Source: a virus (Monodnaviria > Loebvirae > Hofneiviricota > Faserviricetes > Tubulavirales > Inoviridae). From it: 6,287 nucleotides of DNA. The notes beneath the pieces were generated by a model, which had not been told where the DNA came from, ran no database searches, and saw only the letters and a list, made by a program, of their open reading frames with translations. The DNA is taken from IMG/VR virus record IMGVR_UViG_2695420792_000001, positions 1-6,287 of that record, one strand, 5' to 3'. Position numbers and translations under genes: made by a program. Positions 119 to 6,287 of this stretch are shown in pieces (positions within the stretch are counted from its first letter, which is position 1; each line of letters begins with the position of its first letter).

Positions 119-1048
119 ATGTCGGGAAATCCATCCCGATGGAACAGACTGGACAATTTGTTTGGTCACACTTCTGTTGATGCCTGTGTGCAGGTATACA
201 ACCGGATCCTGAATGACCTTGGTCTGCCGGAATTCACAAAATGTACGAAATTGTGGCAGAGACAGGCAAGTGAAACTGAAAAGGCCGGAACGGTTACTGA
301 TGGCGCATGTATTCGTGAAATTCACATTACATCCAACCGAACAGTCGGAGCAGATAATGTAGATGACTATATATCGGGCCTTTCAACATTACGGTATCGC
401 AATAGTGAGCCGCGATTACACAGCAACGGTAAATCAGTTGACTGGCTATCCAAAAAAGGAAACGCCTTGCTCATTTATCCGACTGTATATAATAAAGCAC
501 ATGAAATTAAGCTTCACTCCCTTAATAAAATAAAGAATAAATTCGGGGATTCATCAGCTGAAGTTTCATACATCAAAAAGATTATTGATTTCTGTCAGGA
601 ACAGGGCGTAGTCAGATTTGAGCAAAAACTTAAATCCCGGTATCTGCAACGTAACCATCTTATTTACTGGGGGCTTTCCGACTATTCAATACTCAATAAT
701 TTACATGATGATTTTTTAGCTCTTGATAAAAAGCTTATGGTGACGTCGATGGATTTTGAAACGATTAGTGAACATTTAATCAGTGAAGGCATTGTTGACT
801 CAACTCGATCAGCGAATACCACTGCGATGTATGCTATCCAGTGGATGCACGGTCACTCATTTGATTTTTCTAAAACACAGGTGCAAACCCATCGTGCCAG
901 GCTTAGAAAAATAGGTATTGACATTGCTCAGCGATGTAATATTTCCAAATTTAGCCCCGTTATTGTTAAGAAAGTGAGAGAAGTATCAGTAAGTGAATGC
1001 TTTATTCCATCATGGTATGTGAAACCACGTTATTTGCATGTTGCATAA
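119..1048 (+). CDS. Replication initiation protein (gene II-like), 5'-truncated by the IS insertion; reading frame is open upstream to the IS junction at 85 and into the IS, so Met119 is not the native start
   Basis: Large ORF immediately upstream of the gene V homologue, as in the Ff gene order. The frame has no stop between position 29 and 1048, so it runs across the IS junction. It contains a Y-x3-Y-x-K motif (IYPTVYNK, nt 476-496) reminiscent of catalytic tyrosine motifs in rolling-circle initiators. No direct sequence alignment is possible from memory. Confidence 0.55.
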   Translation: MSGNPSRWNRLDNLFGHTSVDACVQVYNRILNDLGLPEFTKCTKLWQRQASETEKAGTVTDGACIREIHITSNRTVGADNVDDYISGLSTLRYRNSEPRLHSNGKSVDWLSKKGNALLIYPTVYNKAHEIKLHSLNKIKNKFGDSSAEVSYIKKIIDFCQEQGVVRFEQKLKSRYLQRNHLIYWGLSDYSILNNLHDDFLALDKKLMVTSMDFETISEHLISEGIVDSTRSANTTAMYAIQWMHGHSFDFSKTQVQTHRARLRKIGIDIAQRCNISKFSPVIVKKVREVSVSECFIPSWYVKPRYLHVA

Positions 1049-1060
1049 GAGGATATTTAA

Positions 1061-1348
1061 ATGATTAAGATTGAAATTAAACAGTCTCAGGCCATTGCCG
1101 ATACGCGTTCTGGCGTGTCGAAGTCGACCGGGCAGGCGTATACAATTAATGAGCAGTCTGCATATATTTTTCTTGGCCAGGATTATCCACAACTCTTCAA
1201 GTTGAATCTTGACGCGGGTCAGGCACCATACCCGGCGGGATTATATACATTACATCCATCCAGTATTTACGTCGGTGATTTCCAGAAATTACGGGTAGGA
1301 AGAATCGTTCTGATTCCATATCAGGAAAATAAAGAACAGACTAAATAA
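1061..1348 (+). CDS. ssDNA-binding protein, Ff gene V protein homologue
   Basis: The 95-aa product MIKIEIKQSQA..TRSGVS...YTINEQ..Y..LG..YP.L.K..LD.GQ.PY..GLYT.H.SS..VG.F aligns along most of its length with recalled M13 gVp (MIKVEIKPSQAQFTTRSGVSRQGKPYSLNEQ...GLYTVHLSSFKVGQF). RBS AAGAGGA sits about 8 nt upstream. Confidence 0.9.
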   Translation: MIKIEIKQSQAIADTRSGVSKSTGQAYTINEQSAYIFLGQDYPQLFKLNLDAGQAPYPAGLYTLHPSSIYVGDFQKLRVGRIVLIPYQENKEQTK

Positions 1349-1922: not shown

Positions 1923-3188
1923 ATGAAAACTCTTTTAATTGCATTGTTGTTATCTATCATTAGCTTTTATTCATACAGTGCAGAGAACGCAGCTGTTATT
2001 AATCAGACCATTTCAGGAACCATTAAAAACAAAATTACACAGCGTGGTTTCTCAGCGAATGATCCTCGATACTACGGAACATTAAAAGGTATTTCAGGTT
2101 ATCTAAATTCTACCGCTTCAGGTTCGAAAGCTTATACCGTTGCAGGTGTCTCTGGTCGTTCGTGGTTATCAGTTGGACTCAGAGGGGCTTTGTTAAGCCG
2201 CGGTACGCTTATAGCTCTTGCCGCTTCCGGTGCGGTGGCATGGCTAATTGAGACTGAGGACTCCGTACAAATCAAAGTAAAAGAAATAACGGGAGAGCAG
2301 GGTGTTAAAGGGTTTTACTGGAATATTGGCGCAGAAAGCTATGTTACAGCAACTGAGGGAGCTCAGTCGATATGCCAGCATAATCCGGCGTTCTGTCAGA
2401 CATACATAGTTGAGCAATATAATGCAGACCCGACAAGGTCTGATTTAAGAACCATCAAATTTTATATTGATTCATCTAAAACACAGCTTTGGGCATCACG
2501 AACTGCAAACCTTGTTTCCTGCGGTACAAATAAGGTTATGCCTACATGTCAGCCTGATTATGTGCCGGGTAGTAATGAAGTAATTAAAACCGTTAGCGTA
2601 CAGGATGCTATTAATAGCATTTCAGATACGGAAATGCAGACAGATCTTTCGCCAGAAGTTATTTCTGATGTTGTAAATAATGCATGGCAAAAAGCAGCCT
2701 CCGAAGCAGGGTATTCTGGTTTTGCATACGACCACACCAGACCAGTGACAGCGCGTGATGTAACTGCTTCAACTGGTGCTGCAAAGCCCGCTGTATCTGA
2801 CTTTCTCAAACCGTCAGACAAACCCGATTTTACACTACCTGCTGACACAACAGGGACAACACCAACCAATCCATCGACAGGAGAACAGGTTAATCTTGGT
2901 GATGATCCTGGTATTGGGCCGCCTGAACTGGAAAATATACCTGCAGGTACTGAAATTTTATCTCCATTATTATCATTCAACCCCTTTGAAGATTCAGCCG
3001 ATGCACTTAATGCAGAAAGCGAAAGAATTAAATATGCGGAGTGTCCAAAACCTGTACTGGATGTTTTTAACGGACAATATAAGTTAGAAACACATTGTAC
3101 ATTATTAAATAATAACGCTGCGATGATTGGTGTTATTTTTCTGTTCATTTACTCAATAGCAGCGTTCAGAATTATCCTTTCTGCATAA
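1923..3188 (+). CDS. Adsorption/minor coat protein (gene III-like), 421 aa
   Basis: Strong RBS AGGAGG about 5 nt upstream. The signal peptide MKTLLIALLLSIISFYSYSAE resembles the recalled M13 pIII leader (MKKLLFAIPLVVPFYSHSAE). The C-terminus has two Cys (ECPKP...THCTLL) followed by a membrane anchor (AAMIGVIFLFIYSIAAFRIIL), as in M13 pIII. A Pro/Thr/Gly-rich linker lies in the middle. Size matches pIII (424 aa). Confidence 0.85.
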   Translation: MKTLLIALLLSIISFYSYSAENAAVINQTISGTIKNKITQRGFSANDPRYYGTLKGISGYLNSTASGSKAYTVAGVSGRSWLSVGLRGALLSRGTLIALAASGAVAWLIETEDSVQIKVKEITGEQGVKGFYWNIGAESYVTATEGAQSICQHNPAFCQTYIVEQYNADPTRSDLRTIKFYIDSSKTQLWASRTANLVSCGTNKVMPTCQPDYVPGSNEVIKTVSVQDAINSISDTEMQTDLSPEVISDVVNNAWQKAASEAGYSGFAYDHTRPVTARDVTASTGAAKPAVSDFLKPSDKPDFTLPADTTGTTPTNPSTGEQVNLGDDPGIGPPELENIPAGTEILSPLLSFNPFEDSADALNAESERIKYAECPKPVLDVFNGQYKLETHCTLLNNNAAMIGVIFLFIYSIAAFRIILSA

Positions 3189-3197
3189 AGGTGATTT

Positions 3198-3485
3198 ATG
3201 TTTGGCATCATGACCTCTGTTTTATATGGCGTTCTTGGGTTTTTATTGCGCTCAGTTATTGTGAAGTTTACGGTGTTTTTTGCATTGTATTTTATTGTGC
3301 AGGAATTCGTGCCGCTTATTCTCGATATGGTTAATCGCCAACTCCCACTTCTTGCGTTAATTTCAAGTATTCCAGATAGCCTGAAATATTTCTTCTCTGT
3401 TTTTAAAGTTATAGATGGGATTAACATAATACTTTCAGCTTTTGTGACTCGCTTTATTATTCGTCGAATTCCGGTAATAGGATAA
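3198..3485 (+). CDS. Minor coat protein (gene VI-like), hydrophobic 95 aa
   Basis: Highly hydrophobic small protein immediately after gene III and before gene I, matching Ff synteny. RBS AAGGTGA upstream. Confidence 0.7.
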   Translation: MFGIMTSVLYGVLGFLLRSVIVKFTVFFALYFIVQEFVPLILDMVNRQLPLLALISSIPDSLKYFFSVFKVIDGINIILSAFVTRFIIRRIPVIG

Positions 3486-3489
3486 TTTT

Positions 3490-4515
3490 ATGGCTGTATC
3501 ATTGTATATGGGTGTGATGGGGAGCGGTAAAACATACGAGGTTGTTTACAGTGTTATTATCCCTGCGGTTTCAGCAGGCCGCCGTGTAATCACCAATATC
3601 AAAGGGATAAATGAAGAGAAAATACATGAGTATTGTCGTTCTAAATTCAAGACTAAGCAGCCTGGTCGTGTTGTTTTCGCATCGACGGATGAAATATTAA
3701 AGGATGATTTCTTCCCTTTTTACTCTGATGATGAATCTTCAGAACAAAAAGCAGCATTTTGTGAATATGGTGATCTGATTTGTCTTGATGAATTATGGTC
3801 AATATGGCCATCGGACTCAAAACTATCTGAGGCACATAAAAGATTTATTTCAATGCACCGTCATATGACACATGCTGTTAGTGGGGTATCATGTGATTTG
3901 GTCATCATCAATCAGGGTGTAGATGGTGTACCCCGGTATCTTAAAGAGCGTATTGAATCGACATACCGGATGACCAAACTAAAATCTTTGGGGCTATCAA
4001 AGTCATATCGTGTCGATGTTTTTTCTGGTGCCAAAGTATTCAAAAATAATAAAGTCAGTACTCGTAACTATCAGTACAAAAAAGCCGTTTTTGAATTATA
4101 CAAATCTTATGAAACCACTAACGGAATGGAAGCGACAACAGACTCTAGACAAAACGTTTTTTCATCCGCCTTTCTTTGGGTGAAAATTGCATTTTTATTA
4201 TTTATTGTACTGGCTTCTATATATTCAATAAGAACGGTCTGGGTGGATATTAGAGGAGAGTCAGTACCAGAGCCGAAACATACCGAACCGGAGGTTGTAC
4301 TGCCTTCATCAGAAAAGATTGCGAAACCTGATGCCCCGTACTCAAAGCGCTGGCGTATTGCCGGGGAGTTAAAATCAGATTATGTCAGCAAGGTTGTTCT
4401 TACAGACAGCAATGGTCGGTTTAGAACGCTACCGGCAAATCAGTTCGACGGAGAAGGTTTTACTTTAAGTGGAATCATTGATGGTGAAATTGTCACCTAT
4501 TTTACTGGGGGTTAA
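3490..4515 (+). CDS. Phage assembly protein pI (Zot-family P-loop NTPase), 341 aa
   Basis: The N-terminus MAVSLYMGVMGSGKTYEVV carries a Walker A motif (GxxGSGKT) and resembles recalled M13 pI (MAVYFVTGKLGSGKT). A single transmembrane helix (FLWVKIAFLLFIVLASIYSI) lies about two thirds along the protein. It sits directly upstream of the secretin gene. Confidence 0.9.
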   Translation: MAVSLYMGVMGSGKTYEVVYSVIIPAVSAGRRVITNIKGINEEKIHEYCRSKFKTKQPGRVVFASTDEILKDDFFPFYSDDESSEQKAAFCEYGDLICLDELWSIWPSDSKLSEAHKRFISMHRHMTHAVSGVSCDLVIINQGVDGVPRYLKERIESTYRMTKLKSLGLSKSYRVDVFSGAKVFKNNKVSTRNYQYKKAVFELYKSYETTNGMEATTDSRQNVFSSAFLWVKIAFLLFIVLASIYSIRTVWVDIRGESVPEPKHTEPEVVLPSSEKIAKPDAPYSKRWRIAGELKSDYVSKVVLTDSNGRFRTLPANQFDGEGFTLSGIIDGEIVTYFTGG

Positions 4516-4516
4516 T

Positions 4517-5728
4517 ATGAAATTATTTTATATCATAATAATGGTATTTATGATTCCACCTGCATTATCAAAAGGCGTTATACTGAATCTCTCAGGATTA
4601 ACGCTTAATGATGCCATTACTTTGTTTTATACTGAAGTTATGAGAAAACCGTTCATGGTTTCTCCTGAACTTATCACGGACAAACGACAAGTTAATTTCA
4701 ATATTACGCCAGATATGGATGAGTATACGTTTATTATGCGTTATCTCCAGAATGCCGGAGTCTCTGTAGCCAGAAAAAATGGTGTGGATTACTTTTATCT
4801 CCAGGAGAAAAAAGTATACGAAGCCCCGAAATATTCTTTTGTTTACACACCACAGTACCGTTCTGTTGCTTATCTGGCTGATATTCTTCAGTCACAAGTG
4901 AGCGGGTCATTTTCAAATGGTGGGCAAATAGGGCATGGCGATGTTTCTCCTGCGATGATTAAAGACAATACCGCATCCGATTTTTTGAGCAGAAATGGGG
5001 ATGTACTTGTTTTTTACGGTACGAAAAAAGACATTCAGCGGGTCGAAGATTTGCTTCCTCTTATCGACCGGGCCGCCGAAGAAGTTATTGTCGCCGGGTA
5101 CGTGTTTGAGGTTCAGACGTCTGAGCGAAATGGTTCTGGCCTGGCACTGGCTGCCAAACTTATGTCGGGAAAATTCACAATAGAAACGGGTACTGCACAA
5201 GGACTCAGCAACTTTGTCCGTTTCAGTTCTGGATCGCTCGATGCACTTTATGAGTTGTTCAGAACAGACAGCCGTTTTCACGTCGTCAGTTCGCCACAAT
5301 TGCGGGTCAGAAATGGCTCTAAAGCATCATTTTCTGTGGGATCTGACGTGCCGGTACTCGGTCAGGTCAGCTATGTTGATGGTCGTCCGGTTCAGTCCAT
5401 TGATTATCGTTCAAGTGGCGTAATTTTTAACGTTCAGCCGCAAATCCGGGCTGCTACGATTGACCTTAATATTCATCAGCAACTGTCTAATTTTGCAAAA
5501 ACAGAGACTGGGGTGAATAACAGCCCGACGCTCATTAAACGGGAGGTGAACACCGATGTTTCGCTCAAGGATGGCGACATAATTTTACTTGGTGGTCTGG
5601 CTGAGAATAAAGACAGTAATGCAGATACGGGCCTGTCATTTTTGCCGTCATGGTTCGGAACAACGGCAACTGAAAAAGCAAAAACAGACATCATTATTGT
5701 ACTTCAGGCCAGAAAAATCAGGCGGTGA
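4517..5728 (+). CDS. Secretin, phage pIV-like outer-membrane export channel, about 403 aa
   Basis: Signal peptide MKLFYIIIMVFMIPPALS. The C-terminal secretin-type region (VSLKDGDIILLGGLAENKDSNADTGLSFLPSWFG) resembles the recalled pIV C-terminus (…MDGQPLLLGGL…GVPFLSKIP…). I chose the start at 4517 because it follows the gene I stop (4513-4515) and a GGGGG RBS; the ORF-track start at 4469 would lie inside gene I. Confidence 0.88.
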   Translation: MKLFYIIIMVFMIPPALSKGVILNLSGLTLNDAITLFYTEVMRKPFMVSPELITDKRQVNFNITPDMDEYTFIMRYLQNAGVSVARKNGVDYFYLQEKKVYEAPKYSFVYTPQYRSVAYLADILQSQVSGSFSNGGQIGHGDVSPAMIKDNTASDFLSRNGDVLVFYGTKKDIQRVEDLLPLIDRAAEEVIVAGYVFEVQTSERNGSGLALAAKLMSGKFTIETGTAQGLSNFVRFSSGSLDALYELFRTDSRFHVVSSPQLRVRNGSKASFSVGSDVPVLGQVSYVDGRPVQSIDYRSSGVIFNVQPQIRAATIDLNIHQQLSNFAKTETGVNNSPTLIKREVNTDVSLKDGDIILLGGLAENKDSNADTGLSFLPSWFGTTATEKAKTDIIIVLQARKIRR

Positions 5729-5959
5729 GAGCAGGGCGGCCAGCCCCGCAGCTCCGTGAGGAGCTGGCCGTACTGAGACACCGACTGTTGATTGATTGTG
5801 TAAATCATGAACGGCGTGATTTGCGCATGCGCAAATTTCTCGTCAATTCTTATGGGGAATCTATGGCTACAAAGTTGAAGTTTATCCGACTGAAAATTGA
5901 AGATGAGTTAATCCAGCCGGTTAATAATCTGGCAGGCATTCGCGATGAGTTAAAGGCCG
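5729..5959 (+). promoter_or_regulatory. Remnant of the phage intergenic region, truncated at 5959/5960 by the IS insertion; contains a GC-rich dyad and a perfect 18-bp palindrome
   Basis: Located after the gene IV stop, where Ff phages carry a terminator, the packaging signal and the origins. Hairpin CAGCTCC-GTGA-GGAGCTG at 5749-5766, or the alternative CGGCCAGC/GCTGGCCG pairing at 5737-5770. Perfect palindrome ATTTGCGCATGCGCAAAT at 5819-5836. Confidence 0.5.
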
Positions 5960-6287
5960 TGAACCGCCCCGGGAATCCTGGAGACTAAACTTCCTGAGAA
6001 AGAGGTAAACAGGATGACTAAAAATACTCGTTTTTCCCCCGAAGTCCGTCAACGGGCAGTCCGTATGGTTCTGGAAAGTCAGGATGAATATGACTCACAG
6101 TGGGCGGCAATTTGTTCCATTGCCCCAAAGATTGGCTGTACGCCGGAGACTCTGCGTGTCTGGGTTCGCCAGCATGAGCGGGATACCGGGGCGGTGATGG
6201 TGGGCTCACCAGCGCTGAACGTCAGCGTCTGAAAGAGCTGGAACGTGAAAATCGTGAACTGCGCCGCAGTAACGATATCCTTCGCCA
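5960..6287 (+). mobile_element. Partial IS3-family insertion sequence (IS629/IS1203-like), orfA-proximal end; element continues beyond the window
   Basis: Terminal repeat starts TGAACCGCCCCGGG at 5960. OrfA begins at 6014 with [23 protein letters not shown]…[18 protein letters not shown], which matches my recollection of IS629 OrfA. Identical over 84 bp to the inverted copy at 1-84. Confidence 0.9.
6014..6232 (+). CDS. IS3-family transposase OrfA (helix-turn-helix N-terminal part); frame is interrupted before the leucine-zipper segment, which continues in the -1 frame from 6178 to the window end
   Basis: The ORF encodes the HTH-like N-terminus and stops at 6230-6232. The leucine-zipper-like sequence [19 protein letters not shown] is read in the -1 frame from 6229 onward. 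The two frames overlap at 6178-6232, around a G4 run at 6188-6191. Confidence 0.7.

Follow-up and report, generated by a model that had tools for sequence, protein, structure and literature searches.

A conserved hairpin with two bulged adenines at the gene IV end of an Escherichia coli filamentous prophage and its relatives is a candidate packaging signal

Introduction

To our knowledge, the filamentous phages whose packaging signals have been established by experiment are few (Ff and IKe), and we know of none for the numerous prophage-type inoviruses that are derived from genomes. In IKe, a feature annotated as 'stem loop ... morphogenetic signal' at 6141-6196 spans the gene IV stop codon at 6151; in I2-2, the annotated 'morphogenetic signal' at 2260-2330 likewise spans the gene IV stop codon, at 2273; and hairpin A of M13, also on the viral strand at the gene IV end, begins at the gene IV stop codon. 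All three are GC-rich imperfect hairpins of similar size. In the Ff model, pV leaves the packaging-signal (PS) hairpin exposed, and the C-termini of pVII/pIX as well as pI/pXI act there (PMC10175506).

Here, we describe a hairpin that occupies the corresponding place in a 6,287-nucleotide stretch of inovirus DNA (IMG/VR record IMGVR_UViG_2695420792_000001), hereafter referred to as the window. A first-pass annotation of the window had pointed to a GC-rich dyad symmetry capable of forming either an 8-bp stem or a 7-bp stem closed by a GNRA-type tetraloop, and had proposed it as a candidate packaging or termination structure. We find that the dyad belongs to a longer hairpin, positioned like the signals of IKe, I2-2 and M13, whose stems covary and whose apex is nearly invariant across the family. 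From where the hairpin lies, from its association with the morphogenesis module and from its presence in plasmids devoid of gene IV, we infer that the dyad forms the upper portion of a filamentous prophage's morphogenetic (packaging) signal, a reading to which we assign a probability of roughly 0.55.

Results

The hairpin lies at the gene IV end of a dif-associated filamentous prophage

The window carries a full filamentous-phage (inovirus) gene set, several small ORFs included, all of it on the + strand, and the dyad was confirmed to lie directly after the secretin gene (Table 1). The host element is a previously uncharacterised filamentous prophage of E. coli that is associated with dif. Nine of 5426 complete E. 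coli genomes contain intact copies, with 100% identity over positions 5600-5959, in chromosomal tandem arrays that have a dif-like site ~1.2 kb downstream. In Ff phage the origins follow hairpin A, whereas in the window phage accessory genes, and not the replication origins, come after the hairpin, gene II being ~3.3 kb away. The remainder of the window, from ~5960 to 6287, is occupied by a copy of IS629 that is 97-98% identical to copies found in Stx phages; intact prophages are uninterrupted across the insertion point.

Table 1. Positions in the window of the phage genes and of the elements of the gene IV-end hairpin
Feature	Position	Strand	Remark
Replication protein G2P	119-1048	+	
Gene V-type single-strand DNA-binding protein	1061-1348	+	
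Gene III-like ORF, 421 aa	1923-3188	+	
DUF2523 protein (gene VI position)	3198-3485	+	
Zot/pI	3490-4515	+	
Secretin (gene IV)	4469-5728	+	
Secretin stop codon TGA	5726-5728	+	Inside the 5′ basal arm of the hairpin
Whole imperfect hairpin, probable morphogenetic (packaging) signal	~5719-5787	+	MFE folds, whole-phage scan, covariation
5′ arm of the 8-bp stem, CGGCCAGC	5737-5744	+	Pairs with 5763-5770
3′ arm of the 8-bp stem, GCTGGCCG	5763-5770	+	
Conserved apex CC-CGC-AGCTCC-GTG-A-GG-A	5745-5762	+	
Alternative 7-bp hairpin CAGCTCC-GTGA-GGAGCTG	5749-5766	+	
Next gene (MATKLKF...), 100 aa	start 5863		Interrupted by IS629 at ~5960

Further symmetrical elements lie downstream of the secretin gene, up to and including the dif-like site. 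A perfect palindrome, (A)TTTGCGCATGCGCAAA(T), is found at 5819-5836 of the window and four times per phage unit, and is present at each accessory gene region. In L001 it occurs seven times, against none expected (at 375, 849, 948, 9221, 9597, 10070 and 10168); another copy lies in L002 at ~4350, and a Kluyvera relative has one too. This palindrome looks like an operator and is a candidate binding site for a phage regulator; its half-site TTGCGCA is also similar to the XerC arm of dif. The dif-like site itself (GGTGCGCATAA-TGTCATACGCG-TTATGTTGAAA; L001 10378-10440 and L005 2150-2215) shows an apparent 11-nt spacer between its XerC-like and XerD-like arms and is directly followed by a canonical bidirectional terminator (GGCCGCTGCG...CGCAGCGGCC), site and terminator together constituting the other very stable hairpin of the phage unit.

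Two other accounts of the dyad were rejected. It is not a REP/BIME-like dispersed repeat, since positions 5600-5965 matched 21 places in nine of 5426 E. coli genomes, and the best place in each genome lies, by its annotation, where a GspD-type secretin gene ends. Nor is the region coding: an ORF at 5725-5988, whose GTG overlaps the secretin stop codon and which is in frame with the gene at 5863, is interrupted by stop codons in Kluyvera, and the frame of the motif described below differs between the extended secretin ORFs of the L005 and L030 types.

The dyad is the upper part of a long, stable hairpin

Both dyads reported in the first-pass annotation are present, at 5737-5744/5763-5770 and, around GTGA, at 5749-5755/5760-5766, and they compete for the tetranucleotide GCTG at 5763-5766. 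The 8-bp stem turned out, however, to be just the middle of a ~70-nt imperfect hairpin with 25 pairs over 69 nt, made up of the paired segments 5719-5721/5785-5787, 5723-5727/5779-5783, 5732-5734/5773-5775, 5736-5744/5763-5771, 5745-5746/5760-5761 and 5747-5749/5756-5758. The basal stems (5719-5727/5779-5787) enclose the secretin stop codon. In the apex, CC at 5745-5746 pairs with GG at 5760-5761 and CGC at 5747-5749 with GTG at 5756-5758, leaving a loop at 5750-5755 and two bulged adenines, A5759 and A5762, both on the 3′ strand. What had been read as a GNRA-type GTGA tetraloop thus consists of G-T-G paired with CGC, followed by a bulged A.

The stability of the structure was compared with that of shuffled sequences, a check proposed together with the original observation. 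Positions 5725-5780 folded at -29.1 kcal/mol as RNA (z = -2.9) and at -14.7 kcal/mol as DNA (z = -2.4). The longer segment 5714-5790 folded at -22.6 kcal/mol as DNA (z = -4.66, none of 200 shuffles being as good) and at -40.3 kcal/mol as RNA (z = -4.42). In a scan of one complete 9.4-kb phage unit (L001 3101-12540), the hairpin ranked first with DNA parameters and second with RNA parameters among 1873 80-nt windows of the + strand, and the only comparable structure was the bidirectional terminator beside the dif-like site. Within the window phage, the long fold and the 7-bp fold are nearly isoenergetic as DNA (-21.9 vs -21.3 kcal/mol); as RNA, the 7-bp fold is 5.8 kcal/mol worse. A search of the whole window with the covariance models of Rfam 15 yielded no match up to E = 1.

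Stems covary and the apex is nearly invariant

A secretin search of genome contigs returned a single relative, a Kluyvera georgiana prophage whose secretin is 85% identical to that of the window and which carries the same hairpin. Relative to the window, the pair 5739/5768 has changed on both sides from G-C to C-G, one basal pair from G-C to A-T, a G·A mismatch to an A-T pair, and the G·T pair 5748/5757 to G-C. In further prophages and replicative forms of E. coli, with 53-61% secretin identity, the apex is identical but the stems are very different. A profile scan of IMG/VR provided 79 secretin relatives, 66 of which had usable sequence after the gene. The motif [AC]CC[GA]-N7-10-GAGGA was found at the gene IV end in 50 of these 66 (42 of 58 distinct loci), in phages whose secretins are 44-100% identical, and in 40 of the 42 distinct loci at most two 70-nt windows lying up to 900 nt to either side were more stable than the hairpin. 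As to searches by DNA pattern, eight of the 11 matches of a first viral scan arose by chance, as did nearly all of the matches of a metagenome scan (at least 120), in GC-rich contigs; the real ones among the metagenome matches listed were three L030-type contigs and the plasmid contig L041.

The complementarity of the two arms was examined by a swap test in which every 5′ flank was combined with every 3′ flank from 17 independent lineages with flanks at most 60% alike. Combinations were scored by duplex energies, a version based on whole-sequence minimum free energies being confounded by the self-structure of one 3′ flank. The cognate 3′ flank came first in 17 of 17 lineages (z = -13.2; none of 200,000 permutations was as good), with a mean duplex energy of -35.0 kcal/mol for cognate versus -13.4 kcal/mol for non-cognate combinations. 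In a gap-free alignment of 29 sequences (A3), the long-hairpin model left 82.4% of the cells paired, with 13 of 18 pairs changing on both sides, and gave a covariation score of 0.605 compared to 0.157 for shuffled alignments, no shuffle out of 500 scoring as high; in controls where the partners were slid by 1-3 columns, 28-47% of the cells were paired. For the 8-bp stem (columns 5-12 with columns 32-39), many different kinds of base pair were seen. The stems are unrelated in sequence across lineages and yet complementary, and the ranks in the swap test together with the pair counts show that selection maintains this complementarity. Conservation in related phages, on which the original proposal had been made to depend, therefore held in both the swap test and the 29-sequence covariation analysis.

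The apex behaves differently from the stems. C14, C15 and GAGGA are invariant in the 29 sequences, the column pairs 14-29 and 15-27 being C-G in 29 of 29; the CC:GG step and the C-G pair above it are likewise invariant in all 29, with the adenines of GAGGA forming the bulges. The conserved architecture reads outer stem, CC, CG(C), variable loop, (G)CG, A, GG, A, outer stem, and the apex CC-CG(C)-loop-(G)CG-A-GG-A is nearly invariant across the family. Of the two originally proposed pairings, the 8-bp stem is supported by this comparison as the outer stem. The 7-bp GNRA hairpin, with 52.8% of its cells paired across the 29 relatives and one covarying pair, was rejected as a conserved structure: sequences of the L030 and L005 types break it and still satisfy the long model. 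With DNA parameters, the + strand gave a more stable fold than the - strand in all 10 lineages compared, the bulges being one-sided, and among the loci examined all motif copies but one have the same orientation relative to gene IV.

The hairpin resembles known morphogenetic signals in place and shape, not in sequence

The comparison with IKe and I2-2 suggested in the first-pass annotation gave a divided answer. As in these two phages, the hairpin of the window spans the gene IV stop codon; as in Ff, it is present once per genome, and it would likewise stay uncoated by pV (PMC10175506). Its size and GC-rich, imperfect character are also similar, although it is somewhat shorter than the M13 structure, which folds at -59.9 kcal/mol over 5490-5580. 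No similarity in sequence accompanies this likeness. The M13 apex (GGTTACGC-GCA-GCGTGACC) is without the CC/AGGA bulged-A core, the apex of IKe and I2-2 (GGGTAGGTGCG..AGCCCTGCCC) differs from that of the window, and neither IKe, I2-2 nor M13 yielded a copy of the 19-nt apex motif in a fuzzy search that allowed up to four substitutions. The apices of Ff and IKe, however, differ from each other as well, so that sequence homology is probably not what defines the function. A tblastn search of the phage collection with the secretin brought up neither IKe nor I2-2 at an E-value limit of 1e-5, which fits with these phages belonging to different lineages.

The hairpin is linked to the morphogenesis genes and retained in plasmids without gene IV

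The filamentous phage present as a dimer on plasmid pZ0117EC0117-1 shares with I2-2 an 84%-identical block (I2-2 2598-4454) that takes in genes II and V as well as the 3′ portion of the intergenic region. The ~330 nt that follow gene IV lie outside this block, and contain the morphogenetic signal in I2-2 and the motif hairpin in the pZ0117EC0117-1 phage. The hairpin thus travels with the morphogenesis genes and not with the replication module.

The motif hairpin is also kept by small secretin-less plasmids of 1.5-2.4 kb from E. coli, Salmonella, Klebsiella and others (the metagenomic L041, L158 pLAO17, L159 pMM1, L160 and more than 24 PLSDB plasmids). In these plasmids there is an IKe-like minus origin, with 80% identity over 145 nt, together with the top of an I2-2-like signal, with 93% identity over 27 nt; most of them also have an IKe-like plus origin (89% over 53 nt). 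Their motif hairpin is 92% identical over 37 nt to the pZ0117 type, has compensated basal stems of its own, and shares the polarity of the IKe-like minus and plus origins and of the I2-2-like signal. It is nearly invariant while the adjoining sequence is variable, and it does not lie directly after any gene. The replication gene of the plasmids is pC194-like or of the gene II/X type. On this content, the plasmids are candidate natural phagemids or inovirus satellites. A rolling-circle plasmid satellite of an inovirus has been described in Shewanella (pDolos; 10.1101/2023.11.28.569023). As in pDolos and in engineered phagemids, phage cis signals are here found on small rolling-circle plasmids, and packaging by a helper inovirus is conceivable; unlike these, the enterobacterial plasmids combine the signals of two phage lineages.

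Variant and deviant relatives

The motif hairpin is missing from one prophage type (L004, L026, L027). Many relatives have a second, smaller conserved hairpin, TTTTATGCC-GTCA-GGCATGG, 60-100 nt downstream of the motif hairpin; written as TTTTTATGCC-GTCA-GGCAT-GGRAGGC, it is found in L017 (5029-5044), L031 (1827-1842) and 10 other loci. In the L004 type this second hairpin (~1737-1760) comes directly after the secretin stop codon; when searched for in the window phage, it was absent. It may be an origin element.

Other deviations concern the apex itself. In L179 (2425-2475) the apex is inverted (CCTCCTCGCTAGCTGCGGGGG) relative to the close relatives L177 and L178, and is enclosed by a 21-bp stem free of mismatches, with TTTTT directly behind it; this arrangement suggests that the loop was flipped by recombination between the arms. 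In the pZ0117EC0117-1 phage (L003 1713-1775), a 13-nt direct repeat, CAC(C)GATAGCGGG, flanks the motif hairpin on both sides, and the ~30-nt hairpin core could have been inserted or duplicated there. Four L005-type phages (L031, L163, L166, L234) have a second, stem-poor copy of the apex (CCCCGCAGCGAAGCGAGGAC) ~100 nt past the secretin stop codon.

Alternative roles for the hairpin

We considered the possibility that the hairpin acts at the RNA level only, either in termination or pausing (weak intrinsic or Rho-assisted) or in protecting or processing the 3′ end of the gene IV transcript. The strongly folded transcript (z = -4.4) speaks for such a role, a stem of 25-30 bp would suit RNase III, and the IKe hairpin is also annotated as 'pot. 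transcription termination'. Like a Rho-independent terminator, moreover, the structure is a GC-rich stem-loop located right after a gene, and some relatives add a run of T residues to the stem (L175, L177, L179, L209). In L003, L176, L180, L187 and L188 the 3′ arm can instead pair downstream to form an overlapping, shorter hairpin with a T-rich tract, the two folds being mutually exclusive in an attenuator-like fashion. These features indicate that termination is at least an added role in those lineages and, combined with the operator-like palindromes downstream, make some role in transcriptional insulation plausible; with a TTTGCGCATGCGCAAA palindrome at each downstream accessory gene region, insulation from read-through would be sensible. 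A Rho-independent terminator needs a T tract, however, and none follows the hairpin in the window, where the 3′ flank is GTACTGAGACACC, or in the Kluyvera, L005 and L030 types. An intrinsic terminator scan listed no site at 5700-5800, in agreement with the earlier view that this is not a canonical intrinsic terminator, and the stem of the window is far longer than is usual for one. Furthermore, neither a terminator nor a transcript stabiliser requires a fixed apex sequence, whereas CC...GAGGA is invariant in 29 sequences; the hairpin of the L005 and L030 types lies entirely within the extended secretin reading frame; and the plasmids have retained it in the absence of gene IV and away from the end of any gene. 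We thus regard an exclusively RNA-level function as unlikely.

A second alternative is that the folded + strand serves as an origin or priming site for the complementary (minus) strand, recruiting primase, PriA or RNA polymerase. The single-strand specificity, consistent polarity and invariant apex of the hairpin speak for such a site, and its persistence in phages with no more than 44-60% secretin identity could be due to recognition by a host enzyme that is itself conserved. Rolling-circle plasmids, which depend on a single-strand origin, have also kept the hairpin. In addition, BLAST detected no Ff/IKe-like minus origin in the pZ0117EC0117-1 phage, the window phage or I2-2; the query from plasmid contig L041, which contains an IKe/M13-like minus origin, matched IKe and M13, and nothing in the window or in L001. 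Against this stand the IKe-like minus origin that the plasmids already possess, the lack of promoter-like -35/-10 hexamers within the hairpin, and its position, which is tied to the gene IV end, remote from gene II and outside the block shared with I2-2, the minus origin of Ff and IKe being located 150-200 nt further downstream. Taken together, these observations render a priming function improbable.

The flipped apex of L179 and the direct repeat around the hairpin of L003 could finally be taken to denote a protein-binding site in duplex DNA, or a recombination or inversion hotspot, for which orientation is irrelevant, but we give this very little credence given that the + strand fold is favoured in 10 of 10 lineages with DNA parameters, that conserved G·T pairs and two one-sided bulges would be meaningless in a duplex, and that all copies but one at the loci examined are oriented alike relative to gene IV. 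What is left of our estimate goes to some other function or to none.

Discussion

The element described here is of a known kind, a morphogenetic hairpin at the gene IV end. We did not find its sequence class described in the literature covered, which comprised the UPΦ paper on related prophages and articles about the packaging of inoviruses, with few of the older ones on IKe and I2-2. Of the two functions originally proposed for the dyad, the packaging role draws support from a position equivalent to that of the IKe, I2-2 and M13 signals. Position, polarity, linkage to the morphogenesis module and retention in plasmids fit a cis-acting element of single-stranded DNA, and the same four points argue against an element that serves gene IV expression only.

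By analogy with Ff, the hairpin might operate as follows. Rolling-circle replication frees the + strand as single-stranded DNA, which the gene V protein would coat, sparing the very stable ~70-nt GC-rich hairpin at the gene IV end. The assembly site in the inner membrane, whose Ff counterparts are pI/pXI and the tip proteins pVII/pIX, would then recognise the exposed hairpin through the invariant CC:GG step and the two bulged adenines on the 3′ strand, presented above stems that are specific to each lineage. Assembly would begin at the hairpin, so that the virion would have it at its leading tip. Transcription or degradation may also be hindered when the hairpin forms in the transcript of gene IV, a role that is probably secondary in the window phage since no T tract follows the structure.

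Several observations weigh against a packaging function. The hairpin has no sequence similarity to any packaging signal of experimentally tested function. The plasmids already hold an I2-2-type signal, and the motif hairpin could have another cis function there. Inversion of the kind seen in the apex of L179 should disable a signal that is strictly strand-specific; the prophage type of L004, L026 and L027 does without the motif hairpin; and the second hairpin could be the real signal in those relatives that carry it.

More tentatively, the CC/A-GG-A 'double bulged-A' hairpin could define a class of packaging signal that has so far gone unnoticed among inoviruses. A conserved assembly protein would read the invariant apex and leave the stems free to drift; the signal would be present in a wide clade of gammaproteobacterial phages, and the Enterobacteriaceae plasmids that have captured the hairpin would be satellites of at least two helper lineages. 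We consider this wider proposal possible but doubtful.

The location of the hairpin and its probable role are ordinary, and should it merely be a transcript-end structure the finding as a whole would be ordinary too; the conserved apex and its capture by plasmids are the points worth following up. If the hairpin is a packaging signal, the packaging site would become annotatable from sequence in dozens of uncultured inoviruses, and CC at 5745-5746, A5759 and A5762 would be targets for DNA recognition by the assembly machinery. The motif would then also provide a marker for plasmids and islands that hitch-hike on filamentous phages, and hence for gene flow in E. coli, Salmonella and Klebsiella.
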